Part shown: piece by piece, positions 13,401 through 39,200 of the stretch
Numbering within the stretch: position 1 is the first letter of the stretch
Layout: each line of letters starts with the position of its first letter
Source of the DNA: Escherichia phage NHEP1
Direction: 5' to 3' (one strand)
Length of the DNA: 64,000 nucleotides
Sequence record: PQ511146.1
Made by a program: the position numbers and the translations under genes
The notes under the pieces: model-generated
Told to the model about the DNA's origin: nothing
The model's input: only the letters and a program-made list of their open reading frames with translations
The model's database searches: none

Positions 13401-14213
13401 CCCCTGTCGAGCCTGCAGCTCCATCAGGAAGTGCTGTAACATGCCTCGGCGTAATGCGTTCTTCCAGGTGATCTTCTTGAAGCCTTTCGGCTTCTCTTTG
13501 GCAGGATCGTACATAAAGTTCTGCATGTCAGATTTGCCGTAGAATACACCTTTTGATTCCGCTACCAACTCCTTCCAGAGCAACTCCTGGATGATAACGT
13601 CCTCGAACACACGATCCACATACTTCCACAGTGGAAGCTCACGCCAGTCATCGATTTGAACTTTCTGGTTACCAAGGGCATAGCCCCATGCCATAAGGCC
13701 ATGAGGCCCAACAGGCTGCATTTTCTTGGTAACTGGATTGAATACTGCGTCCGGACAACCTTTTGGCAAAGGGCGGTCAGGCCACAAGATTCGGCTCATC
13801 GCTAACGTATCAAACAGATTAACCGGGTGGTCGTTGATAGTCCCCATGCATTTAGGATCACGGAACATATCAAAATGAATACCGGATAATCTTTCCATCA
13901 GCATAAAGTCGTAACTGTAGCAGTTATGACAGTTCAAAGCCGTAGGTGACCAGTCTGAATTGCCTGTAAGCCAACCTTCCAACTCTGAAAAATCTGCTAT
14001 GCGAGCCTCAAAATCTGTATAAAGGGTCTTCTTTGCCAGAATGAAGTTCTTAGCTTTCTCCACATCCTCTTCAGAGTAGTGTGTGCGGTCATTTAGAGGA
14101 AGGAACAGCATAAAACGGTTCTTATTCAGCTCTTTAAACAAACCGCAGTGATAATAAAGATCTGGGTCTTCCAGCAGGCCAGAGGCCTCAAAATCGAACG
14201 ACCACATGCTCAT
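10467..14213 (-). CDS. family A DNA polymerase (3'-5' exo + pol) interrupted by an intein
   Basis: Exo I FDFEASGL; motif A IGIDGSNLEQL; motif B KPVTYGVMYG; motif C YYHDEY; AAGGAG SD; 1248-aa precursor. Confidence 0.9.
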   Translation of the reverse strand: MSMWSFDFEASGLLEDPDLYYHCGLFKELNKNRFMLFLPLNDRTHYSEEDVEKAKNFILAKKTLYTDFEARIADFSELEGWLTGNSDWSPTALNCHNCYSYDFMLMERLSGIHFDMFRDPKCMGTINDHPVNLFDTLAMSRILWPDRPLPKGCPDAVFNPVTKKMQPVGPHGLMAWGYALGNQKVQIDDWRELPLWKYVDRVFEDVIIQELLWKELVAESKGVFYGKSDMQNFMYDPAKEKPKGFKKITWKNALRRGMLQHFLMELQARQGVYFDIDGAIALRDRCDAWMKEIADRVEPQLPLKELSMSQRPKFPEKPFNQDGTISNNGWKWLKDKLGYPVDMSALEFKAPPKRAFTSTGDVSKMGIKWCEEMGCKDPDKMADFLRGYIKGTSTPHPLPKELMDQAISDLQQKRMPDCKIPMKISNQDDIKRYLISAGWLPTMWRTKDVTKDSKKKALPDADVDARVYAYMDELLESEYCDLIINFWNKTDAKFQTTVHKFRSFPNSERIKKEVFGKIRRKARALITSPQLKDTFGHLCPNLEKLNGEMAKDIVLWLSLRNRRSVLDPIKEDKVDTGLLNHPRLKIDHKLPAKSSGLTNTSRQKHSICANMPKPSPKVVMGKEMRSLWGVPPGYFEIGIDGSNLEQLIGAWGAFEFDNGLYYDVVSNGDAHCYSGDTQILTEKGWVRFEDLDPGTQVFQYDHNTSSMNLVTPLNYVKRSYCGDMYHFHNSSVDFMVTDQHRMLTVDHRSNKLFEDLAKDLKAGKGSNSGRRFIHAAEFYGNTTLSPAQVNLLIAIHDDGHLHTNKDGSIVCRIQVGKGRKVATLLDTFSALSLSYVEQSGKTTKGGLLARRFQFHVPSWVFEFLDSNKDFTYNLMDLDKESKNLFIASLSNWDGWVSSEGGKVAYYSQAGCRKKSVEVVSALATQCGLRNNTVAIHKKGRSVQHRITIGSKQRAGLLTLSKESVEVSGSLVYCVTVPSGAIIVRRNGKVAVCGNCNNAKAYSSVAGKEISRNDGKPVTYGVMYGAQKDKVADMLDISPELGQRVIDALWDANPGLKGRKEDLEKFWEATGKKFIYSFDGHAIWTRSKHSLLNAYQQNGGASLCDLVGILMHHQMVKRGWYDEGVRRIIYYHDEYQLQVPDTPKYKTVYTFDTIEELETFKAQQEAKLHVFDGHKYKKARKDEDGNEVVDKDGNTVYDPILNDDGKLELIWSPVGEMVVHCFWQASKMMGVPFQITGEYLCGRNWGDCH
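11232..12200 (-). other. intein (about 323 aa) within DNA polymerase, with LAGLIDADG-like endonuclease insert
   Basis: N-terminal CYSGDTQIL after extein ...GDAH; block B TDQH; block F VYCVTV; C-terminal ...VCGN followed by +1 Cys; LLIAIHDDGH and LFIASLSNWDGW resemble LAGLIDADG motifs. Confidence 0.7.
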
Positions 14214-18410: not shown

Positions 18411-19754
18411 TTACTCTAAATCTTCTTCTGAGTCAAGCTTATCTTTCACAGCTAAATTAGGGGCAAGTTTGTAATAGCGAAAGCCCCCACCGCCTTGCCA
18501 GTTTACAGATTTAGAAATACCACTTTGATCTTCACCATCGATCACTTTTTGCAAGCGTGGAATAATATGGGTATGACAATGATCTCCTAGCTCAACCGAG
18601 ATCCAACGTCTTTTCATCTTGTGAGCTACAGCAGCAGTAGTTCCAGAACCACCAAATGAATCCAATACTAAATCTCCTTCTCGCGTACACATTTCTAAAA
18701 TCCGCTTCAAAAGCGCTTCAGGTTTTTTTCCATTTTTGAAACTAACGCCCCCTTCATTTGCTATTCCATTCCAACTAATGTCAGTCCAAACATCAGTTAT
18801 TAGTTCAGCAGGCTGCATCTCACCGTCAATTTCCAAAAGCCTGTTGGAATAAAAGACCATTTGCCTACCATTTGCGATATAAAAGCCTTCGACATCCTCA
18901 TTTGGATGTACATAAACCTTATCCCTATCTTTCTTTGACTTCTCGATAGTTTCTTTTCTCTTTATTTTGGCACCACCGCCAATTGCAACGGATTGAAATA
19001 CACGTTCTGCATTATCAATTGCAAATTGTGCTAATTCATCATCAAATGTATCAGGCAGTTTTTTCTTGGCTTCTTTTGTATCTTTATAGCCATTGGCCTT
19101 TGCAAACGCATCGGCAATACCGCACCACGTCCAACTTTTATAATGGTCATCTGGGTTTAATAGATATTTGTTATATCCCGTATCATACTCTTTAGGTATA
19201 TAGATTTTGTTAAGTGGTTTCTTGGTACGATCTTTTGCATATACAAGCAAAAAGTTTGCTGTGGAGAAAACTGTAGTTCCTGTTGCCTTAAAGCCTGAAG
19301 GGCAATTTGTAGTCATCGATATGGTATTTAACTGATTTGCACGACCAAAAATCTCGTCCATCAAGACTTTTAAATAAGCCATTTCGCAGTCATCTAAGTG
19401 AACGAATATCACTCCATCATCGCTTAGCAGATTACGAATTATTTCTAATCTGTCCCGCATTAAGCCCAGCCAAAGGGAGTGCTCCAGGCTATCATCGTAG
19501 TGCTCAAAATCCCTTCCGGTATTGAATGGCGGGTCTATGTAAACACACTTCACTTTGCCTGCATACTCTTGCTCTAGTGCCTTCAATGCCAGTAAGTTAT
19601 CTCCAAAAATCAGTTTATTATCAAAAATATCGTTTTCGGTCACCTTTTTACTGGCGTGATAAGACTTGCTCGAATCTTCTAACAAAATGTGAGGCTCTAG
19701 CTTTTTGCGCTCGTTCTTACCTATCCAGGTAAGTTCTAATTTGGTTTTACTCAT
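18411..19754 (-). CDS. DNA N6-adenine/N4-cytosine methyltransferase (beta class)
   Basis: motif IV CVYIDPPF precedes motif I VLDSFGGSGTT; AAGGAGAG SD. Confidence 0.75.
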   Translation of the reverse strand: MSKTKLELTWIGKNERKKLEPHILLEDSSKSYHASKKVTENDIFDNKLIFGDNLLALKALEQEYAGKVKCVYIDPPFNTGRDFEHYDDSLEHSLWLGLMRDRLEIIRNLLSDDGVIFVHLDDCEMAYLKVLMDEIFGRANQLNTISMTTNCPSGFKATGTTVFSTANFLLVYAKDRTKKPLNKIYIPKEYDTGYNKYLLNPDDHYKSWTWCGIADAFAKANGYKDTKEAKKKLPDTFDDELAQFAIDNAERVFQSVAIGGGAKIKRKETIEKSKKDRDKVYVHPNEDVEGFYIANGRQMVFYSNRLLEIDGEMQPAELITDVWTDISWNGIANEGGVSFKNGKKPEALLKRILEMCTREGDLVLDSFGGSGTTAAVAHKMKRRWISVELGDHCHTHIIPRLQKVIDGEDQSGISKSVNWQGGGGFRYYKLAPNLAVKDKLDSEEDLE

Positions 19755-19815: not shown

Positions 19816-20157
19816 CTACTCAAGGTCTTCAGAGTCAAGCTCAAAAAGAATCAAACTGTGCATGCCTGCAGAGAGATCAACACACCCTGCAACAATAAGG
19901 GTTTGATAGTAAGGTTCAGCACCCTCAATATCTTCGTTAAAATCCACAACAAGGTAGTCACCTTTGTTAAAGGTGTATTTGTCCGATGTAAACGCAAAAC
20001 CTGCCCAGTCCCCTACTGCAGGATCTTTATCAGTCACCTTTGTTAGCAGTAGATCTTTTTCACGAGATCTTTTAGTAAAATCGTGAATCACAACATCCTT
20101 CTCTTCAGGAGTCGGATTGCCACACACGTAGTTAACGATATTTCTCCACAAACTCAT
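19816..20157 (-). CDS. hypothetical protein (113 aa)
   Basis: ATGA overlap with helicase gene. Confidence 0.55.
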   Translation of the reverse strand: MSLWRNIVNYVCGNPTPEEKDVVIHDFTKRSREKDLLLTKVTDKDPAVGDWAGFAFTSDKYTFNKGDYLVVDFNEDIEGAEPYYQTLIVAGCVDLSAGMHSLILFELDSEDLE

Positions 20158-21524
20158 ACGTCCCCCTTTTCTGCTCTAGTTTCAAAATCTTTCCTGACTT
20201 TCTCGTCTAAGCCAGGGAAAGTTGTATTATAAAACTCTACGACTCTCGGGTCAACAATAATATCCACCTCTCTTAATGGACGCAACAAGTTTATTCCTTG
20301 TATCGTCTTAACCCGACTCAAGGCAACATACGTCATTCCGGGAGAGAAAGCTCCGTTCTTTCCGAGGTCTAGGTTGTAACAATCTAACGTAAGTCCTTGA
20401 CTTTTATGCGATGTTACTGCGTACCCAGATTTCAAAGGAAGTTGCTCATAAGACCCGATCACAACCCTCTCTATGAACTTCTCCATCTTCCTTTCGGCAA
20501 TATTGTACCTCTGGGAAGGTTTGTACTCGTTATTCTCCCACAATCTCGGCTCAATTTCAACCTGTGTCCCGTCTTCCAGCTCAACCACCACAGACTTGGT
20601 CTTGAATTTTACCACTGTGGCGCGTGTCCCGTTGACATAGTACGGAACTTTATGTGTCGGGTCAACATCGTTTGAGGTTATCATAACCTTCATCCCTATC
20701 TTCAGCCTCATTTCCTGCTCCACAGGCAGTGTGGAGGGGAACTTACCTTTCATTTTACCAATGTAGGTCTTCTCTGGGGCCTTGATGGCATCATAGAAAC
20801 GTCTGTTCACCTCCTCTGCTTGCTTATTGGTGGCACAGATGGTCAAGGCATCTGTTGGGACACCACCATGATAGCAACGAGTGTTAAGCTCTGCTACAAC
20901 CTCTTTTATGCGACGACCTTCACGAACACAGTTCAACATTGTGGCGAAGCGAACAGATTCCTGACGGAACTGGTCTACTAATGCTATATTGTGAAGATTA
21001 AGATCCTCCCAAGATTTTGTATAGCAACACAGGTCTGTGTGGTAGAAGTTGAAGTAGGCTTCTTTCTCCATAGAAGAGACAACTGGGGGTGCTTGGTAGA
21101 AATCTCCAAACAATAGCACCTGAATGCCTCCGAAAGGTTTGTCATTTTTCCGAAGAAAGCGGAGTTTTCTATCCATCTCTATGAACTTGTCAGCACGGAT
21201 CATAGAGATTTCATCGATAATTAGGATGGTAAATGCCTTGCTTTTCAGAGGCTTTGCTGTTTTTGCCCTTATTGCTGTCCAGTCTGACTCCATGCTCACA
21301 CCTGCGGCAAGATCGAAAGTTCGGTGCGCTGTTGCTCCATTAACGTTTAAAGCGGCTACCCCTGTCGGGGCAACCGTTATGCAAGAGTCTCCATACATGG
21401 ACTGGATCATGTTGATAAGATATGTCTTCCCGGTTCCACCGGGTCCACTTACGAAGACATTCTCACCACTCATGATTGCAACAAGGGCAGCATCTGTGCC
21501 TACATCGTACTGCCCTTTTTCCAT
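20154..21524 (-). CDS. SF1B DNA helicase (Dda/RecD/Pif1-like)
   Basis: Walker A GPGGTGKT, Walker B IIDEISM, C-terminal TSHKSQGLTLD and YVALSRVK motifs. Confidence 0.85.
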   Translation of the reverse strand: MEKGQYDVGTDAALVAIMSGENVFVSGPGGTGKTYLINMIQSMYGDSCITVAPTGVAALNVNGATAHRTFDLAAGVSMESDWTAIRAKTAKPLKSKAFTILIIDEISMIRADKFIEMDRKLRFLRKNDKPFGGIQVLLFGDFYQAPPVVSSMEKEAYFNFYHTDLCCYTKSWEDLNLHNIALVDQFRQESVRFATMLNCVREGRRIKEVVAELNTRCYHGGVPTDALTICATNKQAEEVNRRFYDAIKAPEKTYIGKMKGKFPSTLPVEQEMRLKIGMKVMITSNDVDPTHKVPYYVNGTRATVVKFKTKSVVVELEDGTQVEIEPRLWENNEYKPSQRYNIAERKMEKFIERVVIGSYEQLPLKSGYAVTSHKSQGLTLDCYNLDLGKNGAFSPGMTYVALSRVKTIQGINLLRPLREVDIIVDPRVVEFYNTTFPGLDEKVRKDFETRAEKGDV

Positions 21525-25658: not shown

Positions 25659-26843
25659 TCAAGCTTTAGCTAAAATGGCGCTAAACTCTTCACCAAACTC
25701 TTTTACAATCTTCATCAGGTTTGGGTATGCTTTGATCAGCTGAGCGACGATCTTGTCCCTGCCTTTACCAATAAGTAAGGCATTTCCTAAGGCGTTAGGT
25801 TTCATCATCGCCATAAAGACTGAGAATACAAAGTCTCGGTTCTCATCCTTGAAATTTTCCCAAAGGAAATCAAGGAAGTTTGCCACACAGCTGACAAGAT
25901 CTTCGTCGGAGATACTTGCATTTTCCATCATATTACGAATAGCGATACAACCTTCTGACCCCAGAATCCACAAGATGTCTGGCTGCTTAGGACCTACATA
26001 TTCTTTGCAGCCTCCTGCCATAATCCGACCGATTTCTGGCAAGTTTCGTTTCTTGGTGTGGTAGGTCCAAATTTCTACCGCTGCAGTGTGACCAATTGCA
26101 CCTTGTAGAAGGACACGGGCCATAGCGTCAGAAATAATACCGCTGTCAAAATCGTGCAGGATGTCAGATGCAGCAACCCAAGATCGCGGTGTGGCAAAAG
26201 ATGGACAATTAATCTCAGCCATGGCCTCATAATTATCAATGGCTGATGGGACTCTTTTCAGATATCCAATTACAGAGGAGTGCACCCCATTAAGGAATGC
26301 ATAGTCCTCAATAAACACCTCTGCACTGCTTGTAACTTCTACAATGATAAAGCGGTTAGCTAGAGGAGCTTCGAGCGCCGAAAGAACAGCACCGTCTGTA
26401 GCACGGTTACCTGCAGCTACAAAAACAGAGCCCTTAGGAAATGCATAGGTGCCGCACTTGTGGTCGAGCATAATTTGCATTGCAACCTTCTGCAGGTAGT
26501 TATCTGCATGAGTAAGCTCGTCTAGAAAGATAATTCCGCTCCAGTCCGGATCTGCAGGCCAAAATTCTGGAATTGCAAACACTGTACGTGTAGTCCCATC
26601 CGACTCTACAGGGATAGGTAGCCCAGATAAGTCAGCAGGGTCTTTATCTGACAGTCGCACGTCAACAAGGTTGTCATCTCGCTCACCGAACATATTATCA
26701 GCGATCTGCTTCATCACCTGACTTTTACCCACACCCATTGGTCCCAAAATTAGGACAGATCGGCTATGACGTTGGGCAAACTGAATAATGGCTGGCAACT
26801 CACGGACAGTGATTTGACCACTTTCGAATACGTTTCTTGACAT
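25659..26843 (-). CDS. MoxR-like AAA+ ATPase
   Basis: Walker A GPMGVGKS, Walker B IFLDELTHAD, sensor AAGNRATD; 394 aa. Confidence 0.8.
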   Translation of the reverse strand: MSRNVFESGQITVRELPAIIQFAQRHSRSVLILGPMGVGKSQVMKQIADNMFGERDDNLVDVRLSDKDPADLSGLPIPVESDGTTRTVFAIPEFWPADPDWSGIIFLDELTHADNYLQKVAMQIMLDHKCGTYAFPKGSVFVAAGNRATDGAVLSALEAPLANRFIIVEVTSSAEVFIEDYAFLNGVHSSVIGYLKRVPSAIDNYEAMAEINCPSFATPRSWVAASDILHDFDSGIISDAMARVLLQGAIGHTAAVEIWTYHTKKRNLPEIGRIMAGGCKEYVGPKQPDILWILGSEGCIAIRNMMENASISDEDLVSCVANFLDFLWENFKDENRDFVFSVFMAMMKPNALGNALLIGKGRDKIVAQLIKAYPNLMKIVKEFGEEFSAILAKA

Positions 26844-28439: not shown

Positions 28440-29335
28440 ATCTCCGCGTAAATTAAACTGGAATCAGTATACTTCTTTAGTGGGTAAATATCCTGTCCAT
28501 AGATGCCGTCATTAAACACCTCATCTACCCAAAGGCTACACTTATATCCCATCATCTCTAAAACACCCATCTCTTCTTCGGTAAACTTATCACCGCTCTT
28601 GCAAGATGTCAATACCTCATTCTGTACTCTTGCCACCTCGAAGCGGTTATTGGCAATATCGCTATTAGCGATCAAATACTCACCCAAAGGGTGTGCGGCA
28701 TTAAAGATGCACAGTGGACGGTTGACGTAATAGTCTCCAGGTGTATAAAAATTATTGAGGTCTTTCACTAGAACATTCTTATCAGTCACTTCATTCATAA
28801 CATCATGCATATCGCACATCTTTATATGTTTGAGGATTCCATCCCCCATCACAAAATAAAAACTTGCTGAAACACTTTCGGCATAGATCTTACTAGATCC
28901 GTTGTAGTTGTATTTTACTCGGATGCTAACGGGGGTTTTTCCTGTCGCGTTAGCCATCATCCAAAGAAATGGCAGCTCATACTTCTCCTCTGAGGAAACA
29001 AAAGGTGAAGTTGCCAGAGATCGGAAACCTCCAGAGAAGTTGAAAGTTACAGAACCGCTCCGGCGGTATGATACTGCGTATTCCACTTTTATATCAACAT
29101 ATCCGTTGGAGTAAGTATGCCCTCCATTATCAAGGTATGTCCACTTATCGGACCCAGATACCAACCTCCGCTCAATTACCTTCATCACTACAGGGATTAG
29201 CGGATTAGTACAAACCGATTTTGAAGTAGCTTTATCATCCAAAGCCTCGTAAATTGCAGAAAGGATATCACCTGCTGAGAGATTGGTTGTGATATCTTGT
29301 TTCCACCTGGTGCTAAAACTGTTAAGATTTGCCAT
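28436..29335 (-). CDS. hypothetical protein (299 aa), first gene of the long minus-strand operon
   Basis: ATG with AGGAGC SD directly downstream of promoter 29376..29404. Confidence 0.65.
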   Translation of the reverse strand: MANLNSFSTRWKQDITTNLSAGDILSAIYEALDDKATSKSVCTNPLIPVVMKVIERRLVSGSDKWTYLDNGGHTYSNGYVDIKVEYAVSYRRSGSVTFNFSGGFRSLATSPFVSSEEKYELPFLWMMANATGKTPVSIRVKYNYNGSSKIYAESVSASFYFVMGDGILKHIKMCDMHDVMNEVTDKNVLVKDLNNFYTPGDYYVNRPLCIFNAAHPLGEYLIANSDIANNRFEVARVQNEVLTSCKSGDKFTEEEMGVLEMMGYKCSLWVDEVFNDGIYGQDIYPLKKYTDSSLIYAEI

Positions 29336-29375
29336 GAGTAAGTGCTCCTATGTTAGTTTTCTTTTGAATGGGTGC

Positions 29376-29404
29376 ACTATATCGTGGATTTAGAGTAAAG
29401 TCAA
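29376..29404 (-). promoter_or_regulatory. sigma70-like promoter (TTGACT-17-TATAGT), divergent partner
   Basis: hexamers seen in the intergenic strand-switch region. Confidence 0.55.
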
Positions 29405-29417
29405 CACGTTTTTCAGG

Positions 29418-29446
29418 TTGACATCTTCTCAGGCACTTGGTAAGAT
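29418..29446 (+). promoter_or_regulatory. sigma70-like promoter (TTGACA-17-TAAGAT), divergent partner
   Basis: the track TTG 'start' at 29418 is the -35 hexamer; real ATG is at 29478. Confidence 0.55.
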
Positions 29447-29477
29447 TTCTCCACCCACAGAGAACAAGAGACAACTC

Positions 29478-30467
29478 ATGAATCTTGAAAAATATTATAC
29501 ACCAGAAGAGTTAGAGCGCTTGCTCAAAAAATACAGACGCAAACAGAATAACGCACGGAAACGGGATATAGAGTTCAACCTGTCATGGGAAGAATATCTC
29601 CTATTTGGTAAAAAACTTTTAGGAGAGGGAGTATGCGACTATACCCTTATACCTTTCGACATGCACACAGATGAAAACGGACTGGGAAATCCTTTCTACC
29701 CATCTCTGGAGCGGATAGATGATGAAGGTCCTTATGCGGTTGACAATTGTTGTGTGGTGGGATTGAGATGCAACTCCCTAAAGGACTGCCTGGTAGATAA
29801 AAAGACCGCAGTCTTGATTAAAGACAAAACTGATCGAAAAATTGTCCAGCAGATGATGCTCCACCTGAGCGAAGAGCGTATGGAGAAATTGAAAGGTGAT
29901 TACACTTTTGAAGATTTCATCTTGCAATATGGAACGGAAGAGGATAAACTAGCACTCTTTGACGAAGAATGGGAGGAAGATATGTCACCGATGCAGGATT
30001 TTAAAAACTTCATGGCTAATCGTGGAGCCAACAAGCACATTTCTGACATTGTAAACGAGCCTGTAGTAGAGGAGATTGGAGAGATGACGCAACAGGCTTA
30101 CGAAGAGGAAAAAGAGCCTCAAGTGGTCGAAGAAGAGCTTACAGAAGAGGTTCCTGCACTGCCTGACGATGTTGAGATTGCCAAAGCTTACACTTTCTAT
30201 TGCCAGACGTTCTACGATGCAGGTATGAAAGTTGATCTGTCATTCAGCCAGTTTAAGAGCACATACATTCGAAAATGTTGTGCTTTAACTGGTGAACGTC
30301 TCGGTGCCGGACTTAAACCCCTATTAGTTACCGACTGGAACAAAGGTTTCACCAAAGGTAACTTCATGGTAGTATCTCCAATCATGGAGAAGGCTATGAC
30401 AGACCTTATGAAGACCACTCGCATGACAATGACCGAGTTGGCTGGTATTTTCAAGCACGTTAAATAA
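29478..30467 (+). CDS. hypothetical protein, possible HNH-like nuclease (330 aa)
   Basis: ATG 8 nt after AAGAG; F.LSWEEY...C.YT and SLERIDDEG...DNCCVVGLRCNSLK resemble HNH_3 / endonuclease VII-type motifs, with R in place of the catalytic H. Confidence 0.55.
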   Translation: MNLEKYYTPEELERLLKKYRRKQNNARKRDIEFNLSWEEYLLFGKKLLGEGVCDYTLIPFDMHTDENGLGNPFYPSLERIDDEGPYAVDNCCVVGLRCNSLKDCLVDKKTAVLIKDKTDRKIVQQMMLHLSEERMEKLKGDYTFEDFILQYGTEEDKLALFDEEWEEDMSPMQDFKNFMANRGANKHISDIVNEPVVEEIGEMTQQAYEEEKEPQVVEEELTEEVPALPDDVEIAKAYTFYCQTFYDAGMKVDLSFSQFKSTYIRKCCALTGERLGAGLKPLLVTDWNKGFTKGNFMVVSPIMEKAMTDLMKTTRMTMTELAGIFKHVK

Positions 30468-30471
30468 TGAC

Positions 30472-30488
30472 AGGGGCCATTGGCCCCT
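30472..30488 (+). promoter_or_regulatory. intergenic hairpin GGGGCC-ATT-GGCCCC (possible attenuator)
   Basis: near-copy of the bidirectional terminator stem at 36187 but without a clean U-run. Confidence 0.3.
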
Positions 30489-30500
30489 TCTGGAGTTTTA

Positions 30501-31961
30501 ATGGATAGCAGAAGTTCAGAAATCATTACCGCACAAAAAGATGATGCCTTGCGAATGCTGCAGGCCGCTCGCATGTACCTTCTTGAAAAGCTGCCGTTTT
30601 ATGGCACACTGTTGTCAGGGTTGCAGTTCGTAGAAAACCACACATGGTGCTCCACTATGGCAACAGACCATAAACGCATCTACTACAGCCCTGAGTTCAT
30701 TATGGGGTTGGCAGATGAGCGTAAAACCATTCTTAAAGCATCTCTGACTGACAAGCAGTTTGAGATGGCTGAAGTTTTCTATTCCCCAAAATCTGTGAAA
30801 GAGGTGGCCTTTCTTCTGTCACATGAGGTGGGGCATATTATCTGTGATCATCTGGTCCGTGGTAAAAGCTTTGAGCCGGAACTGTTCAATATTGCTTGTG
30901 ATCACGTTATCAACACAGGTCTTGTGGTTGACTTTAGCAAGCCTCCTTGTGTTTTCTTCCCGAAGGGGAAAAGCACTGAGTTCGTAAAAGGTAAGCCTTT
31001 TGGCTTCTTAGCTAATTGCTACTGCGACATGAAGTTTCATGGATGGATTGCGGAGAACGTCTATGCAGTTCTTGATAAACAAAGAGATCAGAATGGCGGT
31101 AAAAGTAAGAACGGTAAAGGTGAGAACTCCCAAGGAGATAAACGACAAACCGATGATCACATGAGCGGGAACGGTGGCACTAGTGATGATCTTGGAAAGG
31201 CTATGGGGTATGATCAGCCGCAACCAGTAATCAGTCAATCGGATAAAGATCAGGCCATGCAGGACTCTGGTGACATGTTGGAAGCAGCAATGCAAGCTTC
31301 AGGAGGTCGTTGCCCCGAGGCGGTGCGCGAGTTTGTCAAAAACAGAGGCAAGCCTGTAATCAATTATATAGATATTATTAAGCAACGTATGTTATCTAAA
31401 AGAAAGGCTGAGTTAACCTACAGAAAACCTGGTCGCCGATCTGGGTCTTTGACCACCACAATGCGAAAAGTTGGAGCTATAAACAAGAATCAACACGTTA
31501 TTGTTCCTGGTCGTAATCCGGAAAACACTATAGATATTGTAGTGGCTTTAGACGTTTCTGGGTCGATCTCACAAAGAACTTTAAAGAAAATGTTCAATGA
31601 GATCACCGGGTTGTGCAATTTGTATAAAGAGTTTAAGGTTACGATGTTCTGTTGGTCAACCGAGGTTGGAGAGGTTAAAGTATACACTCGCGGTAACATC
31701 GATGAGATGATCAACTATGAGGTCCACTCAACATGGGGCACAACAGCCGCCTGCGTGTTCGAGTATCTTGATGCTAACATACCGAATGCAAAAGATGTCA
31801 TCGTCCTTACCGACCTCTACTTTGAGCATAACTTTGAACAAAAGGCTGTTGACAACAAGTGGAAAAAGTACGATACTTTATGGGTTCTCACCGAAGGGTA
31901 TAATAAAAATTATATCCCGAGCTTTGGGAAAACTGTGGAATTAATCGAGTACGCTAAGTAA
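30501..31961 (+). CDS. DUF2201-type putative metallopeptidase + VWA domain protein
   Basis: N-terminal TMATDHKRIYYSPEF, HEVGHIICDH (HExxH) and NIACDHVIN; C-terminal VWA with MIDAS-like DVSGS; ATG after GGAG (track TTG at 30480). Confidence 0.8.
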   Translation: MDSRSSEIITAQKDDALRMLQAARMYLLEKLPFYGTLLSGLQFVENHTWCSTMATDHKRIYYSPEFIMGLADERKTILKASLTDKQFEMAEVFYSPKSVKEVAFLLSHEVGHIICDHLVRGKSFEPELFNIACDHVINTGLVVDFSKPPCVFFPKGKSTEFVKGKPFGFLANCYCDMKFHGWIAENVYAVLDKQRDQNGGKSKNGKGENSQGDKRQTDDHMSGNGGTSDDLGKAMGYDQPQPVISQSDKDQAMQDSGDMLEAAMQASGGRCPEAVREFVKNRGKPVINYIDIIKQRMLSKRKAELTYRKPGRRSGSLTTTMRKVGAINKNQHVIVPGRNPENTIDIVVALDVSGSISQRTLKKMFNEITGLCNLYKEFKVTMFCWSTEVGEVKVYTRGNIDEMINYEVHSTWGTTAACVFEYLDANIPNAKDVIVLTDLYFEHNFEQKAVDNKWKKYDTLWVLTEGYNKNYIPSFGKTVELIEYAK

Positions 31962-31976
31962 GAGAGGATGGTATTT

Positions 31977-32234
31977 ATGGCAACAGAGGTAGTAATTAAA
32001 GCTGAACGCCCAGTTAAAAAAGCTATCAACACGTTCCCTGTAGGAACCATTGTGAGCATGATTACAGAGTCAGGCCGTGTATCTACACTGCTAATCGTGA
32101 AATCTGCATGCTCATCTTGTGTGTGGGCATACGATCTTGACGAGAAAGAACTGAAAGATTTTGTCGGGGAGCTGAAAGCAACAGAGCTTGACGCTCGTAT
32201 CGAAGTATTTGGTGAAACTATGAAGGAAGAGTAA
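31977..32234 (+). CDS. hypothetical protein (85 aa)
   Basis: second ATG, 9 nt after GAGAGG; first ATG at 31968 abuts the SD. Confidence 0.5.
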   Translation: MATEVVIKAERPVKKAINTFPVGTIVSMITESGRVSTLLIVKSACSSCVWAYDLDEKELKDFVGELKATELDARIEVFGETMKEE

Positions 32235-32497
32235 TGACTACAAAAATCACTATTGCAGAACCGAAAGCTAACACGCAACCTATCGAAAAGTTTAAATGCG
32301 GCGAGGTGGTAACATTTACACCAGATAATGAAGATGCTAAGATTTTTGCCATGGTAACAGCCGAGTGGATGTGTGACAATACCACACAGGTGCTGCGTTT
32401 TGACACCTATCTTACAGATGAAATCAGGAACGACAAGATCGTGACTGGTGTGGATACTGAGATCATTTTCTACAAGAGCTTTTTAGAGGGTTTCTGA
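32234..32497 (+). CDS. hypothetical protein (87 aa)
   Basis: TAATG overlap with upstream gene. Confidence 0.55.
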   Translation: MTTKITIAEPKANTQPIEKFKCGEVVTFTPDNEDAKIFAMVTAEWMCDNTTQVLRFDTYLTDEIRNDKIVTGVDTEIIFYKSFLEGF

Positions 32498-32498
32498 T

Positions 32499-32732
32499 AT
32501 GGCAAAAATTCGTAAATTATCCAGCAATCAGGTTGTGAAAGACTTTGAATCTGGAGAGATTCTGTATGTTCGTGATGCAGATGATGAAGGTGAAGATCTT
32601 GTTATGCTGGTAGGGCACGCTGAAGACGGATGCATCCAGGCTGTTTTTCTTGAAACAGCTGTGGTACACTGGATAGAGCTGGACCTGAAAGCACGAAAAC
32701 CTAAAGCAGAAATCATTATTTACGAAGATTGA
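32499..32732 (+). CDS. hypothetical protein (77 aa)
   Basis: ATG 8 nt after GAGGG. Confidence 0.55.
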   Translation: MAKIRKLSSNQVVKDFESGEILYVRDADDEGEDLVMLVGHAEDGCIQAVFLETAVVHWIELDLKARKPKAEIIIYED

Positions 32733-32748
32733 CAAAAAGGAGAGAGCC

Positions 32749-33198
32749 GTGTTGAGCAAACGTGAATGCGACAGCATTAGTCTGAATTCCTATAAGAAAC
32801 AATGGTTTGGGGTAGAAGTTTGCCGACTGCGGCTAGGCTCCTACTTGAACTTCGTCTATTATGAGAGTGACAGCCGTATCGTCTCTTATGAAGTGTTCTA
32901 CACTAAGAATACATTCGAGCTGAGACGTAAGGTGGATGGCGGGAGATCTACCGCCCAGAATAATTGGGAAACTATTCTACCTCCAGATGTTATAGGAAGC
33001 CCCCTGAATGTATCTGAAGATGAAAATCTTATGGTTCATGCTATGATGGGACTTGACAGCTTAGAGCTGGCGATCTATGATATGTCTATCGAAGCAGTTA
33101 AGCTGGACTACATCGAAAACACTTTAGAGGAAGGTATCAAGAAGTTTCTCGGTGAGAAATTGAAAGCCCACTTTCATAAGGAGCTATATCTGTTATGA
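32749..33198 (+). CDS. hypothetical protein (149 aa)
   Basis: GTG after AAAGGAGAGAG. Confidence 0.55.
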   Translation: MLSKRECDSISLNSYKKQWFGVEVCRLRLGSYLNFVYYESDSRIVSYEVFYTKNTFELRRKVDGGRSTAQNNWETILPPDVIGSPLNVSEDENLMVHAMMGLDSLELAIYDMSIEAVKLDYIENTLEEGIKKFLGEKLKAHFHKELYLL

Positions 33199-33440
33199 AG
33201 ACCCGTAAAGAACGTAACAAGATTTTACCTGGCGCTCTCGAACACATGATGAAGTGCAGATCTATCTGGCACTCTGCCAAGGAGGGGCAGCATGTGGTCG
33301 TGGTTAGTGATAATGCCAACCCATTCGGTGATTATGTCACCATGATGACTCCATACATCCGCGACGGTGTTGTGGAAGTGGTTCCTTATAACGGTCTGCA
33401 TGAGAGGCATTTTGAGAGCACTTTGCTAGTGGAGCTATAA
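33195..33440 (+). CDS. hypothetical protein (81 aa)
   Basis: ATGA overlap with upstream gene. Confidence 0.5.
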   Translation: MKTRKERNKILPGALEHMMKCRSIWHSAKEGQHVVVVSDNANPFGDYVTMMTPYIRDGVVEVVPYNGLHERHFESTLLVEL

Positions 33441-33442
33441 TC

Positions 33443-34009
33443 ATGGCGGTCAATGTGGCTTACAACACAGGAAAGCTTGACAGAGACATTGGGTGTCTTG
33501 TCCTTTCAGATACAGAGGAGTATTGGGGTTATGGGTTGCTGTCAGACCCACACCCGAGCAACCTTGTATCAACAGTGCTATATCGCTACGACCCTGTACC
33601 AACGGTACACGACAAAGACATTCACGACCTTCGGATCAAGTGTCTGGAAGATCTTCTGAACAATGGCTGCAACGATCTGCGGGTAGCCAAGGAGAAGCTT
33701 ACAAACATTCACAAAGAGGAAGTGATGAGCACCCTCAGTAAGAGATCAGTGCACAAAAAGATGATGCTGAACTTTGCAATGGGTATCTACATGGATGGGT
33801 ATAAGGGAGGGGATCCGATCCTCAAGCTTCGCTGCCCAACACTGTGGGAAAGAGTGGTTGACAGTAAGGACGGTACTGCCCTGCTAGAACTCCACACTGC
33901 AGGTTGGATTTGGCGGTATGTAGACGGATACCCTCTGTGGGCATGTGGGCCCGGTGAGTTTGTTGACAGACCTAGCGCGGTAGTGGATTTGCTATTGCAG
34001 TTTGAATAA
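33443..34009 (+). CDS. hypothetical protein (188 aa)
   Basis: ATG 8 nt after GGAG. Confidence 0.55.
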   Translation: MAVNVAYNTGKLDRDIGCLVLSDTEEYWGYGLLSDPHPSNLVSTVLYRYDPVPTVHDKDIHDLRIKCLEDLLNNGCNDLRVAKEKLTNIHKEEVMSTLSKRSVHKKMMLNFAMGIYMDGYKGGDPILKLRCPTLWERVVDSKDGTALLELHTAGWIWRYVDGYPLWACGPGEFVDRPSAVVDLLLQFE

Positions 34010-34065
34010 AAGGTGAGTTATAAAGCATTCATACACCTATCAACAATACAACAAGAGAGACTGAG

Positions 34066-34341
34066 ATGACGAAAGAAGAAGCTGACGTATTAGACTTTGC
34101 ACTAGAGGCTACGCAAGAGGCTCTAGTGTTAGCTTGGAAAATGAACCAACGTGCTGCAGAATGCAACCGCCGAATCAATGAGATCCTGGGTATGTCTATG
34201 TATGATTTCACCATGCATGCTGGAGAGATTCCTGAATTAACTGCTGAGATGAATGATCTTGACAATAAAATTAATATCATTCTGAAGACAGCAGAAACAA
34301 CTCACCAAACCGCCCGTAAATTTATCAACGAGAAGGTGTGA
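34066..34341 (+). CDS. hypothetical protein (91 aa)
   Basis: ATG after AAGAGAGA. Confidence 0.5.
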   Translation: MTKEEADVLDFALEATQEALVLAWKMNQRAAECNRRINEILGMSMYDFTMHAGEIPELTAEMNDLDNKINIILKTAETTHQTARKFINEKV

Positions 34342-34343
34342 AT

Positions 34344-34817
34344 ATGGACTACAGCTACTGCGGAGAAGAAGTACCTTTTAACTACAGCAATCTCGCCACG
34401 AGTAATCCATATGAGACTCGTCACGGCACACACATCATTGCTATTGACTTTGATGGAACGTTTAATGCGAGCCCTTTCATCTTCTCCCGCCTTATTAAGG
34501 ACCTGAAGAAGGAAGGGTGGACAGTCTATCTTGTGACTTTCCGATTCATCACTCAAGACAACGTGGACATCGAATACTGGCGCAAGGAGTTAGATGTTGG
34601 AGTGTTTTATACTGGAGGCGTTCAGAAGGCCGCTTATCTGGCGCAGTTTGATATCTACCCAGACATCTGGGTTGATGATTCTCCAGCTTGCATTCCGGCT
34701 AAGAATCAGTTAGAGTTTGCAATGAAGGAGATTGAGTATAAGTCTGACGCTAAGCGTAACGGATGGCCCTTTATTATTGAAGATTACCCAGATCCTGAAC
34801 CGGAGAAAGAACCATGA
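34344..34817 (+). CDS. HAD-superfamily phosphatase (putative nucleotidase)
   Basis: motif I IAIDFDGT, motif II LVTFR, motif IV IWVDDSP; ATG 7 nt after GAGAAGG. Confidence 0.55.
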   Translation: MDYSYCGEEVPFNYSNLATSNPYETRHGTHIIAIDFDGTFNASPFIFSRLIKDLKKEGWTVYLVTFRFITQDNVDIEYWRKELDVGVFYTGGVQKAAYLAQFDIYPDIWVDDSPACIPAKNQLEFAMKEIEYKSDAKRNGWPFIIEDYPDPEPEKEP

Positions 34818-34984
34818 AACGAAGATACCATTACGTGATGTGGAAGTTATATCATGGTGCTGCTAAGGCTTATCGAGCCGTGTTTGGTAATGACAATCAC
34901 TGCATTATGTTACACCTTACATCCATTGAGCATCACAATGAGTGGATTCGTGCAATCGTAATAGGTGACAAAGACTTTAAGTAA
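34814..34984 (+). CDS. small hypothetical protein (56 aa, not in ORF track)
   Basis: ATGA overlap with upstream stop suggests translational coupling; below the track length cutoff. Confidence 0.35.
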   Translation: MKRRYHYVMWKLYHGAAKAYRAVFGNDNHCIMLHLTSIEHHNEWIRAIVIGDKDFK

Positions 34985-35014
34985 AGTATGGCTTTCGAGA
35001 TGGAGACTGACTAA

Positions 35015-35398
35015 ATGTGCAAGTGTAAATCTTATAATTGGAAAGTGAAAGGTGCCAAGCATCCAAATGTTATCGTTGATGTGCCTAAAAAGCTCCGTGA
35101 CGGCAAAAAACGTGTGTGCCTTGATAAGTGCATGGCTAAACCTATCATGAGCCTATGGGCGGCAGGATTGAAGACCTTAAACTGCTGCTGTGGTCATAAC
35201 AAACGCCCACCAAGCATTATCATACCGGAGAATGCAGATCCTAAAGCATATGCCAAGATACTGACCCGCTACTACAGCACCTTCTTGATTGGAAAATGGT
35301 GCCACGATGAACTCCAGTGGTGGATAGCGTATGGCGGTCTTGGTGCTGCTTTAGGTTTCCCAGCTTTATCAGATAAATCTGTCAAGGTATCGTCGTAA
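35015..35398 (+). CDS. Cys-rich hypothetical protein (127 aa)
   Basis: ATG 8 nt after GGAGA; CxCx...CLDKC...CCCGH. Confidence 0.5.
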   Translation: MCKCKSYNWKVKGAKHPNVIVDVPKKLRDGKKRVCLDKCMAKPIMSLWAAGLKTLNCCCGHNKRPPSIIIPENADPKAYAKILTRYYSTFLIGKWCHDELQWWIAYGGLGAALGFPALSDKSVKVSS

Positions 35399-35502
35399 CC
35401 TATTTTAAGGCCTCAAACGAGGCCTATGCCTTCATAAACTACCTGCCTCTGTGTGATTACCCTTCTAAATAAAATACCCTCTCAAATTGCTTAAAATTAA
35501 GC

Positions 35503-35531
35503 TTGACATCAACACCAGATTTATATATGAT
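35503..35531 (+). promoter_or_regulatory. sigma70-like promoter (TTGACA-17-TATGAT)
   Basis: intergenic; consensus -35, 5/6 -10; the track TTG start at 35487 lies upstream of it. Confidence 0.55.
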
Positions 35532-35561
35532 TATCTCATCAACCAAGCAGAGGAGATTGTC

Positions 35562-35969
35562 ATGGATAATCTTGCGAGTGTGAACGTCGAAATTGTTAAA
35601 CTAAAGTTCTTGGGCTTTCGAGACCCTAATTCTCTAACAGCTATACTGATGGATACCCACTTCACACCTGGGAAAGAGTACACTGCCTTCCGTTATATTT
35701 GTGGAGATCACGAATCGGCCTATAGTGTGAATACAAACCTCGGCGAGGGATATTTCATCAAAGATATCACAGATCACTTGTGGGGTATGTGGGAATTGGT
35801 GGAAGAAGAGAATAAATCCCTTCCCAAAGAGATTTGGGTGCACACCTTCCACACAGGTAAGTTCGGAGGTACGGAACATAAGTCTATCCACTATGAAGAA
35901 GAAAGTGCCATCAAACAACAAGCTGTGCTTGGTGGATCTGTAGAAAAATTTGTTAAATGCGAGGACTGA
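35562..35969 (+). CDS. hypothetical protein (135 aa)
   Basis: ATG 5 nt after AGGAGA. Confidence 0.55.
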   Translation: MDNLASVNVEIVKLKFLGFRDPNSLTAILMDTHFTPGKEYTAFRYICGDHESAYSVNTNLGEGYFIKDITDHLWGMWELVEEENKSLPKEIWVHTFHTGKFGGTEHKSIHYEEESAIKQQAVLGGSVEKFVKCED

Positions 35970-35972
35970 GAA

Positions 35973-36173
35973 ATGGCTGATTTTTGTAAAGATTGCTCTG
36001 AAGAGTTGTTTGGCTTTGACTGCAAAGATTTGGAAGGTCTGATCACTGAGGATCAGTGGAAGGAAGGCTATGCAGCACCTGTTATTTGTGAAGGTTGTGG
36101 CTATACCTATGTTGACCATAAAGGTAAGCGCGTCAAGCCGTCTGAAGATGGGGCATGTTGGGAGTATTACTAA
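35973..36173 (+). CDS. zinc-ribbon protein (66 aa)
   Basis: ATG 7 nt after GAGGA; CKDC...CEGC. Confidence 0.5.
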   Translation: MADFCKDCSEELFGFDCKDLEGLITEDQWKEGYAAPVICEGCGYTYVDHKGKRVKPSEDGACWEYY

Positions 36174-36176
36174 CTA

Positions 36177-36210
36177 TAAAAAGAAAGGGGCCATTTGGCC
36201 CCTTTTTTAT
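36177..36210. terminator. bidirectional rho-independent terminator (GGGGCC-AUUU-GGCCCC flanked by A-run and U-run)
   Basis: lies between the convergent plus module (ends 36173) and minus structural operon (ends 36221). Confidence 0.7.
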
Positions 36211-36220
36211 CTACTACTTG

Positions 36221-39200
36221 TTAAAGAGAGAAAGTCGCGTAGGCTCCCAGACGATACTGCTGATCACCAGGGAACATAACACCTATAGAGGCTGTCCCTA
36301 GAATCCTGCCTTCCTTTCCAGACTCCATTCTGAACCCTACCCATCCGGAACTCCTTGCAGCCTCGATGTTGTCGCTATACCCAAAAGTGGCAAGCTCGTC
36401 AACACCAGCTCCAAACAGCAACTGAAGCTGACTTCTCGGAAGCCCTATAATTTCAGGAATATATGCACCAAAGTACACCATCTGCCCTACCTTAGGACCG
36501 CTGCCGTACTCCATCGGCTTGCTTGTAGAGAAAGTCTTCATACCAGAAGTCCCTGCCGGATTAGGGTATGCCCCGTTTGTTGCTGTGCCTATCCACATTC
36601 TCCACTGAGGTGCCATCTGTCTGACAGTGAAAGATGTTGAAGACGTTTTGCGGCCTGCATCATCCGTAACTACAAACTTTATAGTGACATTACCAGGGGC
36701 TTTAAATGTTACCAATCCTGTGGTAGCATCCACTGTTGCAATGTTAGTATTACTACTTTCCCAAGTCTTTCTAATCCCTGGCACATTGGAAGGGGTAATA
36801 GAAGGTTCCTGCATCTGCAGTTTACCGCCCACAATCCCTATGCCGTTACCTGGATTATACAACGCACCAACTTCATCTACAATGTTACCTGCCTTGAGGC
36901 TGTACTTTTTAGAGAAGTTGTAAGTGCCGTTATATGCGTGTGTCCCTGAGAAGGTTACATCTGCCTTGCCGTTGGAGATGCAAACCAAAGCATACTTCCT
37001 GTCAGGCAACTGTGCCCCAGTTTCTGGGTGAGTTTTACCCACCTGGAACACGCTCGGGTCAGTAGAGTCGTGGCTATCACTAACAGAGCTTGGACCACCC
37101 ATCAACTGTGACAAGCAATTCCTTACCCATGTCCAGTTATTGTCACTGGAGAAGTCTACAGTCAAATCAAACACAACCCACTCATTTGGCTTCCACACAG
37201 GTGTTGTGATCAACTTACCAACACCCCCACCCTGAAGAGTAGGAGATTGTTCAGTGATCAGGGCAGAGTATGCCAGAGTGCCCAACTGCATAGTCTGGCT
37301 TGCTGTCCTCACTACCTTAGAATCAGCATCTGTGAAGTTGTTGATGATCTGGAATGTGCCATAAGTGTTTTTACAGGTAATTCTGGCGTTCAGTGTGTCA
37401 ATCTTCCTCACATCTGCCATAGCAGTGTTAGACACAGAGAAGTCAGAAGCTTTAGCTGAGTTTGCTGCAACAGCCGGATCAACGTTGAGGGTTGCGTTGA
37501 ACTGGCAGGCAGGAGTAACCAGCAGCTTGTTATCACCTATTTGCTTCCATGAAACACTTTGAACAGGGAGATTCCATTTAATACCTGAGAAAACTTTAGC
37601 AACCCTTGGTCCCAGAGCTCCCGTCCTGTTGTCTTTACAGCACATGGACATAGTGATCGTTGACGGGGTGGCCTGACCAAACAATTGTTGTGCTTTTGCA
37701 GAGGACATGGTGTAGAAATTGTCCTTAACAAACTCATCAGCCGCTAACGATCCGTCAGATCTCCACCATTGCACCTGGTACCCAGTCTTATCCCAGCCAC
37801 CGACCTGCTTTAAGTCCTCCCAAGAGATTTCCAAATCTCCGGTGGTAGGGTTAATTGCCGCAGTTCCTGGTGTTCCAGATGACCATATTGGGATATCGAA
37901 CCACGCTGGTTTAACAGACTGCACTGCGTTAGGTCCTATTGCAGCAGCAAGTTGTTGACCCATCAATACGCGAGCATCTTTCACCAGACCCCACTCAATC
38001 ATAGACCCAGAGTAACCCTCTTTCTTATATGCGGATGACCCATTCAAGTGAATAAGTCTACTTGTGCCGAAGTTATGTGCTCCACCGCCGTTGTCGTCTG
38101 CAAAATTGGTTATGATTCTATCCCTGATGTTTTTCCATGCCCTGCCCCCAATCTCGTAGTCATGGTCATAACATCTTTGCAGCGTTGTCCAGCAAATGAT
38201 CGCCATCCTTCTGCCGTTACTGAAGCCAAAAGCCTGATCGTTAAGCTCTCTCCACAAATAGCAGTTAGTGGTCCACATAGCTCTGTGAATGTTGAACCAG
38301 TTTATAGACTTGGCTGAGTTATCCCACTGAGTCCCAGGTAATTCAGGCCACACTGCATTAACCAGCATGTCTTCTGTTCCTGCATCAACCAAGAACCCTC
38401 TTACCTTTTTACCCATGCCTACCCTGTCTTTTGCAATCCAACTGCCAAACAATCTCAGTTTTGGACCGTAAACAACATCTTCCGGATGCTCAAAAGAGAC
38501 ATACTTCAGATATACTGTAGGGTCACCATAGGTGCCATCACAAACAGCTTTGTGCATGTTCTCGCCAAGGTCTAGACGAAGTCCTGTTACAACTTTTGAC
38601 GTGTCGGTGAATTTGTCTGTTAAATCAAATTCATACCACCACCAACCTGCACCCAACAATACCTTCTTACAACGCTGCGCATCTGTATCAGATATTCTCT
38701 TATCTCCTGAAAAAGGTGAGTCAGCAAACTGATAGTGCAGAGCAATTTCAAAAGGATGTGTGGAGGTCCCGTTTTCTGCAAGGACTTGTTTACCTATTAA
38801 GTCACACTTAATAATCATCACAACACGTTTGTACCCATTTGTTACTGGGATCTGCATAGACATAGATGTCCCGTCCATGTTTGATCTCAGCGCAGTCATG
38901 ATGATATAAGGATCAACGGCATTACCAAGAGTTTCAGGCCCTGGAATTATCTTATACTTCTTAACCTGCCCCATGATGTAATCACTGGCGTAAGTTGCAG
39001 CCTCGAAGCAAGATCCCCCGTTAGGCAGTTCCCCTGGCCCCCAGAAAAATGCGCCATAACAGTTATAAAACCACTTGTTAGGGTCGTATTTGTTCTTGAA
39101 GGTCTGAACCTCGTTGGCCTGTTTTGTCAAGAAAACCTGCGTATCTGTAAAGATTGCAGGGTTTACTCTTGACTGTCGATTAGCATACCCGGTTTGGTTA

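Follow-up and report, generated by a model that had tools for sequence, protein, structure and literature searches.

The rightward gene block at positions 29478-36173 of Escherichia phage NHEP1 (sequence record PQ511146.1), analyzed here within a stretch of 64,000 nucleotides referred to as the window, is the second transcriptional unit of the rV5-like Vequintavirus genomes, corresponding to rV5 genes 11-26. The block is very probably a known rV5-like unit driven by sigma-70-type promoters, dispensable in the laboratory and vertically inherited, of which only a cassette comprising an internal promoter and the gene g13 has been exchanged. A first-pass annotation had described it as an accessory module of the kind expected for a host-takeover or anti-defence island. 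The word "accessory" fits insofar as the genes are dispensable and mostly lineage-specific, whereas "island", "variable" and "mobile" are wrong.

The identity of the block was established by a megablast search of 50,697 phage records with positions 29300-36300 as query. The query matched 120 records, nearly all of them Escherichia phages of the genus Vequintavirus (rV5-like myoviruses), and 113 of the 120 covered at least 80% of it at 92-98% identity. The gene tables of the block and of rV5-like genomes were found to agree. Four transcriptional units, one of them consisting of genes 11-26, were proposed for rV5 by Kropinski et al. (2013; Virol J 10:76, PMC3606486), who also described the skew switches of that genome and a T4-late-like motif upstream of its structural genes, called gp11 a probable Srd homologue, and listed in Table S4 the elements P010, P011, P020, P025, t026 and t027, whose sequences correspond to the elements found here. 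As a genome feature, the rightward unit with its signals was already published in 2013 and is not new. NHEP1 and rV5 share genus, gene order, orientation, P010/P011, P025, t026/t027 and the skew switch. They differ in that rV5 is about 92% identical to the block in sequence, has 16 annotated genes instead of 14, carries a different P011 spacer with the -10 hexamer TACGAT in place of TAAGAT, and has a terminator loop that is not that of NHEP1. Sixteen records titled "Campylobacter phage" (MG065644-MG065690), with C. jejuni given as host, are 92-93% identical across the full block; the host assignment of these records is doubtful.

Fourteen plus-strand open reading frames (ORFs), numbered g1-g14, fill positions 29478-36173, each with a Shine-Dalgarno-like sequence and several with 4-nt overlaps. 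Outside the block, all gene-like ORFs of at least 150 residues lie on the minus strand, and GC skew is positive only over 29-36 kb of the window, so that ORF strands and skew agree with the earlier description of 13-14 packed rightward genes in an otherwise leftward window. The leftward genes to the left of the block encode a fucosyltransferase-like protein, small ORFs, a MoxR-type ATPase, a cell-wall hydrolase, rIIA/rIIB, helicases, a primase and a DNA polymerase, and those to the right encode lateral tail fibres and baseplate proteins.

Two sigma-70-type promoters stand back to back at the left boundary, exactly where they had been predicted, within a 71-bp control region and with 13 bp between their -35 hexamers. 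The rightward promoter (29418..29446, plus strand; rV5 P011 equivalent) is composed of TTGACA (29418-29423), a 17-bp spacer and TAAGAT (29441-29446), with a TG extended -10 element. The leftward promoter (29376..29404, minus strand; rV5 P010 equivalent) is composed of TTGACT (29404..29399), a 17-bp spacer and TATAGT (29381..29376), and lies upstream of the fucosyltransferase-like gene, MoxR, rIIA/B and the replication genes. The predicted internal promoter (35503..35531, plus strand; TTGACA-17-TATGAT; rV5 P025 equivalent) is likewise present and matches 11 of 12 consensus positions. Non-coding stretches aligned from nine genomes of the genus provided phylogenetic footprints of these signals. 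The four boundary hexamers and the TG are constant or vary only at position 3 of a -10 hexamer: in the rightward promoter the -35 hexamer and TG are fixed, the -10 varies only at that position, and 7 of the 17 spacer bases vary, and in the leftward promoter the hexamers are the same in 7 genomes and the spacer is variable. Both GGGGCC stems described below are constant across the genus genomes, and their loops change. Judged by these footprints, in which hexamers and stems are fixed while spacers and loops drift, the boundary signals are more than chance occurrences. A TTGACA-17-GATAAT promoter also precedes the g1 homologue in Seunavirus 4MG and Mydovirus AV124. Two further promoter-like sites were set aside: that at 33053 lies within fully conserved coding sequence and is uninformative, and that at 33412 decays in most relatives and was judged incidental.

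The block ends at a bidirectional intrinsic terminator (36184..36205, both strands; rV5 t026/t027 equivalent), with GGGGCC-ATTT-GGCCCC at 36187-36202 and T-runs on both strands. Compared with shuffled controls, its folding energy was -19.7 kcal/mol (z -4.05) on the plus strand and -17.3 kcal/mol (z -3.3) on the minus strand. The stem is constant among relatives, with a loop of ATTT, GTTT or AAAC. The terminator is shared with the convergent tail-fibre operon, the minus-strand 1877-aa gene of which has its stop at 36221, confirming the claim that it also closes the structural operon. The loop GTTT of some relatives is replaced in others by its exact reverse complement, AAAC (loci L001, L002 and L006-L009); because the stems are perfect palindromes, the terminator and hairpin loops appear to have been flipped, the outcome expected of template switching at a hairpin.

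The window contains just two occurrences of the pattern GGGGCC-N3-4-GGCCCC (30473-30487 and 36187-36202), and 100 shuffles gave none. The first occurrence is a GC-rich hairpin between g1 and g2 (30472..30488; AGGGGCC-ATT-GGCCCCT), the stem of which is constant in the genus, with a loop of ATT or AAT. At the same position in 4MG and AV124, directly upstream of the vWA gene, an unrelated hairpin with a proper T-run was found. The copy of the terminator stem that had been called attenuator-like is thus real, and since the position of a hairpin before the vWA gene is kept in these sister genera, the idea is supported in general terms; the hairpin is possibly a partial terminator or an RNA-stabilizing structure. 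Another hairpin, which the first-pass annotation did not list, follows g12 (35408..35425, plus strand; AGGCCTC-AAAC-GAGGCCT, -13 kcal/mol, z -3.5, with no U-tract). It is identical in 7 genomes and is kept in phage Bas54 (MaxBurger, MZ501093) despite a swapped downstream promoter and g13 cassette, and could be a processing or stabilizing structure. Exact matches to the late-type motif TGGTAAAATA were found on the minus strand only, in the structural region (51339 and 57156), and none is intergenic in the module; this confinement would fit transcription of the module from sigma-70 promoters early or midway in infection. Scans against Rfam (E up to 1) and for tRNAs gave no match.

Taken together in the preferred reading, transcription by the host sigma-70 RNA polymerase would begin at the rightward promoter, within the control region shared with the leftward promoter for MoxR, rIIA-B and replication, and would pass through g1 and then the conserved hairpin before g2, which may lower read-through. 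Transcription would continue through g2-g12, be reinforced at the internal promoter before g13-g14, and end at the bidirectional terminator common to the convergent tail-fibre operon. From the promoter type, the timing would be early or middle. The cargo would consist of an Srd-like protein, by T4 analogy a modulator of host RNA metabolism, together with a vWA-zincin protein, a small HAD-type phosphatase and 11 small proteins.

Inheritance of the block was assessed by comparison within and beyond the genus. All 14 genes are present in the four genus members compared, and, pooled over these four relatives, the ratio of nonsynonymous to synonymous substitution (dN/dS) was 0.047-0.055 for the module, 0.029-0.046 for the left flank and 0.026-0.037 for the right flank, so that the module, at about 0.05, is constrained much as its flanks are. 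Together with the presence of the block in the 113 genomes above and a difference at the g13 slot only, this contradicts the idea of a module that is variable or mobile among relatives. The equivalent block of the sister genera (4MG, AV124) contains homologues of g1, g2 and g10 only, leaving 11 of the 14 genes without a homologue there, and that of Certrevirus CR3 contains a g2 homologue only. The head of the unit is therefore old, and the small-ORF tail genus-specific but fixed. The block is conserved and syntenic within the genus, but its genes have no known core function; it belongs to the vertically inherited genome of the genus, in which selection maintains it, and is not an island. The accessory-like character claimed for its content holds in that the genes are lab-dispensable and mostly lineage-specific, but not for g2, a gene with homologues in 625 phage records that range from N4-like podoviruses to jumbo phages. 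The window does contain a variable gene outside the fixed block at 29-36 kb, that for a 447-aa N6/N4 DNA methylase (18411-19754, minus strand; PF01555, E 5e-44), which has no counterpart in the related loci L006 and L008 and a match of 10% coverage in L009.

The exchanged part of the block is confined to its right end. The g13 gene (35562..35969, plus strand) encodes a two-module protein of 135 residues matching phrog_15992, phrog_30425 and phrog_3955, and is conserved at 7 genus loci. In Bas54 it is replaced by two genes, only residues 13-82 of g13 being matched, at 51%. Homology breaks exactly at the internal promoter, for which Bas54 has the substitute TTGACA-18-TATTCT, followed by a novel gene of 109 residues (bas54_0044) and one of 62 residues whose only relation is to the N-terminal half of g13 (MZ501093; locus L016, 996-1580, versus window 35495-35969); the upstream hairpin and g14 are retained. 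By these alignments, the internal-promoter and g13 cassette is the only part of the block exchanged between relatives. The slot resembles the morons of temperate phages in that one or two genes follow their own promoter and a conserved hairpin upstream, and in that the unit has been swapped in Bas54; it differs in that the NHEP1-type phage is lytic and that only one alternative cassette was found among nine genomes.

Dispensability was read from transposon sequencing of Bas54 (HIDEN-SEQ preprint, 10.1101/2025.11.20.689424). Orthology was checked here: g1-g12 and g14 are 89-100% identical to bas54_0056-0045 and bas54_0042, g2 is 99% identical to bas54_0055, and the MoxR of the window is 99% identical to bas54_0063. 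On Escherichia coli K-12, 14 of the 15 genes bas54_0042-0056 were classified as "non-essential" and bas54_0043 as "reduced fitness" (Extended Data Table 8, 10.1101/2025.11.20.689424). MoxR was also non-essential on K-12, and the MoxR and g2 orthologues tolerated insertions at 94% of TA sites (10.1101/2025.11.20.689424). In the clinical-host resampling of the same study, the log2 fold change was -7.23 for MoxR (bas54_0063; adjusted p 0) and -2.20 for the g2 orthologue (bas54_0055; adjusted p 0.009), compared with a non-significant -2.28 for the g6 orthologue (bas54_0051; adjusted p 0.195) and a non-significant -0.08 for the g1 orthologue (bas54_0056); other module genes were near zero, and 27 genes were significant overall (10.1101/2025.11.20.689424). 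The main text of the preprint reports that MoxR and bas54_0140 are required against DS-28, a predicted defence system of the clinical strain CFE311 (10.1101/2025.11.20.689424). The depletion of the g2 orthologue appears in the supplementary data only, and the main text is silent on the metallopeptidase (10.1101/2025.11.20.689424). The resampling sheet "Data S6" is titled K-12_vs_CFE303, and its command line compares the BW25113 library with a library "311". It was read as the CFE311 comparison because the command line names 311 and the top matches fit the text on CFE311; the HIDEN-SEQ resampling sheets are probably mislabelled or swapped. A helicase gene, bas54_0068, was non-essential on K-12 and strongly depleted on the clinical host (log2 fold change -6.32, q 0; 10.1101/2025.11.20.689424). 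It matches a 456-aa ORF of the window (20154-21524), a putative orthologue, by length and by place after rIIB, and would be another conditionally required gene of the leftward arm; the text passages of the preprint that were searched do not mention it.

The most widely conserved gene of the block is g2 (30501..31961, plus strand), which encodes 486 residues with a zincin metallopeptidase domain (DUF2201_N) and a vWA domain (DUF2201), both above the Pfam cut-off (E 1e-28 and 3.5e-11). Among eight phages with 24-49% identity, H108, E109, H112 and H117 and the metal-ion-dependent adhesion site (MIDAS) residues D351, S353, S355, T414 and D438 are invariant; with HExxH and the full MIDAS intact, its description as a metallopeptidase-VWA protein was borne out. 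The predicted partner, a MoxR-type AAA+ ATPase, is encoded outside the block (25659..26843, minus strand; phrog_1297, with weak AAA/bpMoxR Pfam matches). In CR3, phiTE, RaK2 (pair annotated as N4 gp24/gp25-like), PBM-2 (N4-like) and the Aeromonas phage 2L372D, the g2 homologue is immediately preceded on its own strand by a MoxR homologue. In Vequintavirus, Seunavirus and Mydovirus, MoxR is on the other strand across the divergent promoter, and in NHEP1 the two genes are 3.6 kb apart on either side of it. By this comparison of gene orders, g2 is the separated half of an ancient MoxR/vWA two-gene cassette, with the MoxR ATPase as its predicted co-factor, and since the divergent promoter splits the ancestral operon, the counter-orientation looks like an inversion that split it rather than an insertion. 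The databases label g2 as an HNH endonuclease or an anti-sigma factor.

A further proposal is that g2 and MoxR form one ATP-driven proteolytic counter-defence machine that inactivates DS-28 or another host immune protein. The two genes would be transcribed divergently from the one 71-bp control region, and the conserved hairpin before g2 would set the dosage of g2 relative to g1. The window MoxR is nearly identical to the Bas54 protein acting against DS-28, and the g2 orthologue was depleted in the same host comparison; on the other hand, MoxR lies outside the block and the g2 effect is much weaker (log2 fold change -2.2 versus -7.2). As the phenotype is weaker and the host comparison involves several factors, g2 could be explained otherwise, and because CFE311 differs from K-12 in many ways, with many genes significant, the g2 effect is not assignable to DS-28. 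The proposal is accordingly a tentative one, with the balance somewhat against it. If true, it would assign a function to a gene pair carried by more than 600 phage genomes, from N4-like podoviruses to jumbo phages, and replace the virion-assembly hypothesis. A preprint on CBASS and a phage protease (PMC12991175) concerns the prohead protease and not g2.

The first gene of the unit, g1 (29478..30467, plus strand), encodes a 329-aa Srd-like protein in which a disordered acidic linker connects two degenerate HNH-type domains, as derived from BLASTP, a family alignment and an AlphaFold2 model. In BLASTP against T4 Srd, residues 8-143 (E 8e-8) and 253-299 (E 5e-4) both aligned onto Srd residues 4-133, and g1 matched phrog_1400 (E 9.6e-10). 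The AlphaFold2 model (pLDDT 79, with the linker disordered) has an HNH-type fold. In an alignment of 12 sequences, parallel motifs mark two blocks, the acidic linker varies and no His is invariant; "ERID" stands in the place of the "DHDH" of endonuclease-VII-type HNH proteins, and the CxxC pairs are lost. No Pfam HNH match was obtained for g1. A BLASTP comparison of its N- and C-terminal halves was negative, and the duplication is visible only through T4 Srd and the family alignment. g1 is an Srd-family protein on a catalytically degenerate HNH-type fold; its earlier designation as "HNH-like" is correct for the fold, but a conserved catalytic His is lacking among the 12 homologues. T4 Srd binds RNase E and accelerates host mRNA decay, according to the citing article (Qi et al., 2015, as cited in PMC4980113). 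Like genes of the T4 early region, g1 is the first gene after a strong sigma-70 promoter and is lab-dispensable, and its N-terminal domain is homologous to Srd residues 4-133; unlike Srd, it has a second, more degenerate domain copy and the acidic disordered linker, and the C-terminal half of Srd has no alignment to g1. By analogy with T4, a host-takeover role is plausible for g1 alone. Database labels for g1 conflict, being HNH endonuclease, anti-sigma factor, anti-termination protein and type II restriction endonuclease. The conflicting labels of g1 and g2 are attributed to the degenerate HNH-type fold of g1 and to annotation drift, and can now be corrected.

Several points weigh against the preferred reading of a sigma-70-driven, lab-dispensable unit. 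Genes that the phage can do without in the laboratory are under strong purifying selection, which implies that they serve functions in natural hosts. The Srd-like function of g1 is based on 24% identity over about 135 residues. No leftward promoter above the scan threshold was found in 4MG or AV124, so that the back-to-back arrangement may be confined to the genus. On the plus strand the 30473 hairpin is not followed by a canonical U-tract, and it was scored by the scan as a minus-strand terminator only, which is where the attenuator-like description falls short. Finally, a literature search found no transcriptome for any Vequintavirinae phage, and promoter use, timing and hairpin read-through are inferred.

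The rival that survives best regards the whole module as a host-takeover or anti-defence island of early effectors, each countering a host system. The module is indeed a separate counter-oriented unit with an Srd-like first gene, 11 of its genes are genus-specific small ORFs, and the block genes of Bas54, all but one of them non-essential on K-12 and the other of reduced fitness, are yet all under purifying selection. In addition, the g2 orthologue was depleted on a defence-rich clinical host, and the neighbouring MoxR is a validated counter-defence gene. However, a PADLOC defence-family scan of ten proteins, eight of them from the module, gave no match, and 13 of the 14 orthologues showed no significant depletion on the one clinical host. 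The gene content is fixed across the genus, unlike that of typical anti-defence hot-spots, and g2 is broadly conserved rather than accessory. Vequintavirinae are exceptionally sensitive to restriction-modification systems (Maffei et al., 2021), and there is therefore no sign of potent anti-restriction content. The separate unit, the Srd-like g1 and the g2 depletion favour the island reading, while variability, mobility and a defence-family match are lacking. Support for anti-defence concerns g2 only and is indirect, through its partner MoxR outside the block, and the reading as a whole is unlikely.

Much less probable is a reading of MoxR and g2 as a chaperone/protease pair for virion assembly, which would make the head of the module morphogenetic. 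Iyer et al. (2021; PMC7824862) described MoxR with a zincin-vWA protein in jumbo phages and proposed a role in virion assembly for this identical domain architecture. The NHEP1 pair shares with the jumbo-phage pair, and with the N4 gp24/gp25-like proteins, the zincin and vWA architecture, the cognate MoxR and the invariant catalytic and MIDAS residues, and is conserved across very different phage morphotypes; it differs in that the genes are on opposite strands and not adjacent in NHEP1, Seunavirus and Mydovirus. The transposon data speak against an essential assembly role: since both Bas54 orthologues tolerate insertions, MoxR and g2 are not needed for infective virions on K-12. Both genes also lie in regions with sigma-70 promoters among replication and early-type genes, outside the structural operon. 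The phage MoxR/vWA-metallopeptidase pair is thereby suggested to be dispensable, conditionally beneficial and possibly counter-defensive, rather than a chaperone for assembly. An origin of the block as a mobile or horizontally acquired element that inserted between the replication and tail-fibre regions, suggested by the opposite orientation, the sharp boundaries and the hairpin repeated at 30473 and 36187, is close to refuted, as the GC content of the block is normal, no bracketing repeats were found, family scans of the window proteins detected no integrase, transposase or recombinase, sister genera share the junction as well as g1, g2 and g10, and the orientation switch splits the ancestral MoxR-vWA operon, pointing to inversion.

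The remaining genes of the unit, all on the plus strand, are mostly small. The genes g3 (31968..32234, 88 aa, phrog_10698), g4 (32234..32497, 87 aa, phrog_12861) and g5 (32499..32732, 77 aa, phrog_12046) each have a Shine-Dalgarno sequence and a non-essential Bas54 orthologue, and for g3 dN was 0.010-0.020 against a dS of 0.15-0.32. Paralogy among g3-g5 and g7, suspected by eye, gained no support from an all-against-all BLASTP comparison. The 149-aa product of g6 (32749..33198) is genus-restricted: a search of 5.8 billion proteins returned 125 homologues, all at least 93% identical save one (61%), from genus members only, and gave no useful alignment for structure prediction. Non-essential Bas54 orthologues are also found for g7 (33195..33440, 81 aa, phrog_4868), which overlaps g6 by 4 nt, for g8 (33443..34009, 188 aa, phrog_12232; dN 0-0.009), for g9 (34066..34341, 91 aa, phrog_12604) and for g11 (34814..34984, 56 aa, phrog_12006).

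The product of g10 (34338..34817, 159 aa; GTG start, with an ATG at 34344) is a candidate cap-less HAD-type phosphatase. Its HAD motif residues D37, D39, T41, T67, K97, D113 and D114 do not vary among 5 sequences, which reach down to 59% identity. No family-model match was obtained in Pfam or NCBIfam, the predicted structure was of low confidence, and its fold search was not discriminating; the phosphatase call is upheld by the four invariant catalytic motifs, but not by a family model or a confident fold. Databases label g10 as polynucleotide kinase. The Cys-rich g12 (35015..35398, 127 aa, phrog_12958) is the most diverged conserved gene of the block (85-89% nucleotide identity, dN 0.045-0.069), and g14 (35973..36173, 66 aa, phrog_2210), which is 89-100% identical in relatives, carries two CxxC pairs and is zinc-ribbon-like; direct reading of the two sequences agrees with the earlier mention of zinc-ribbon and Cys-rich proteins. 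Sequence searches of the Protein Data Bank with g1, g2, g10, g12 and g14 gave nothing significant, Pfam recognized only g2 among the module proteins, and an NCBIfam scan of the larger proteins gave no meaningful match. The database labels of g6 (tail protein or holin), g12 ("methyltransferase TYW3") and g14 ("alpha-aminoadipate carrier protein") are not supported here.

Elsewhere in the window, positions 10467-14213 (minus strand) form one ORF of 1248 residues that weakly matches family-A DNA polymerase. In the same place, phage navn has an 810-aa DNA polymerase and a separate "HNH endonuclease" gene, and YP-6 has a single 1132-aa ORF. This comparison suggests that the ORF combines a polymerase with a homing-endonuclease or intein-like insert, which is either fused to it or interrupts it.

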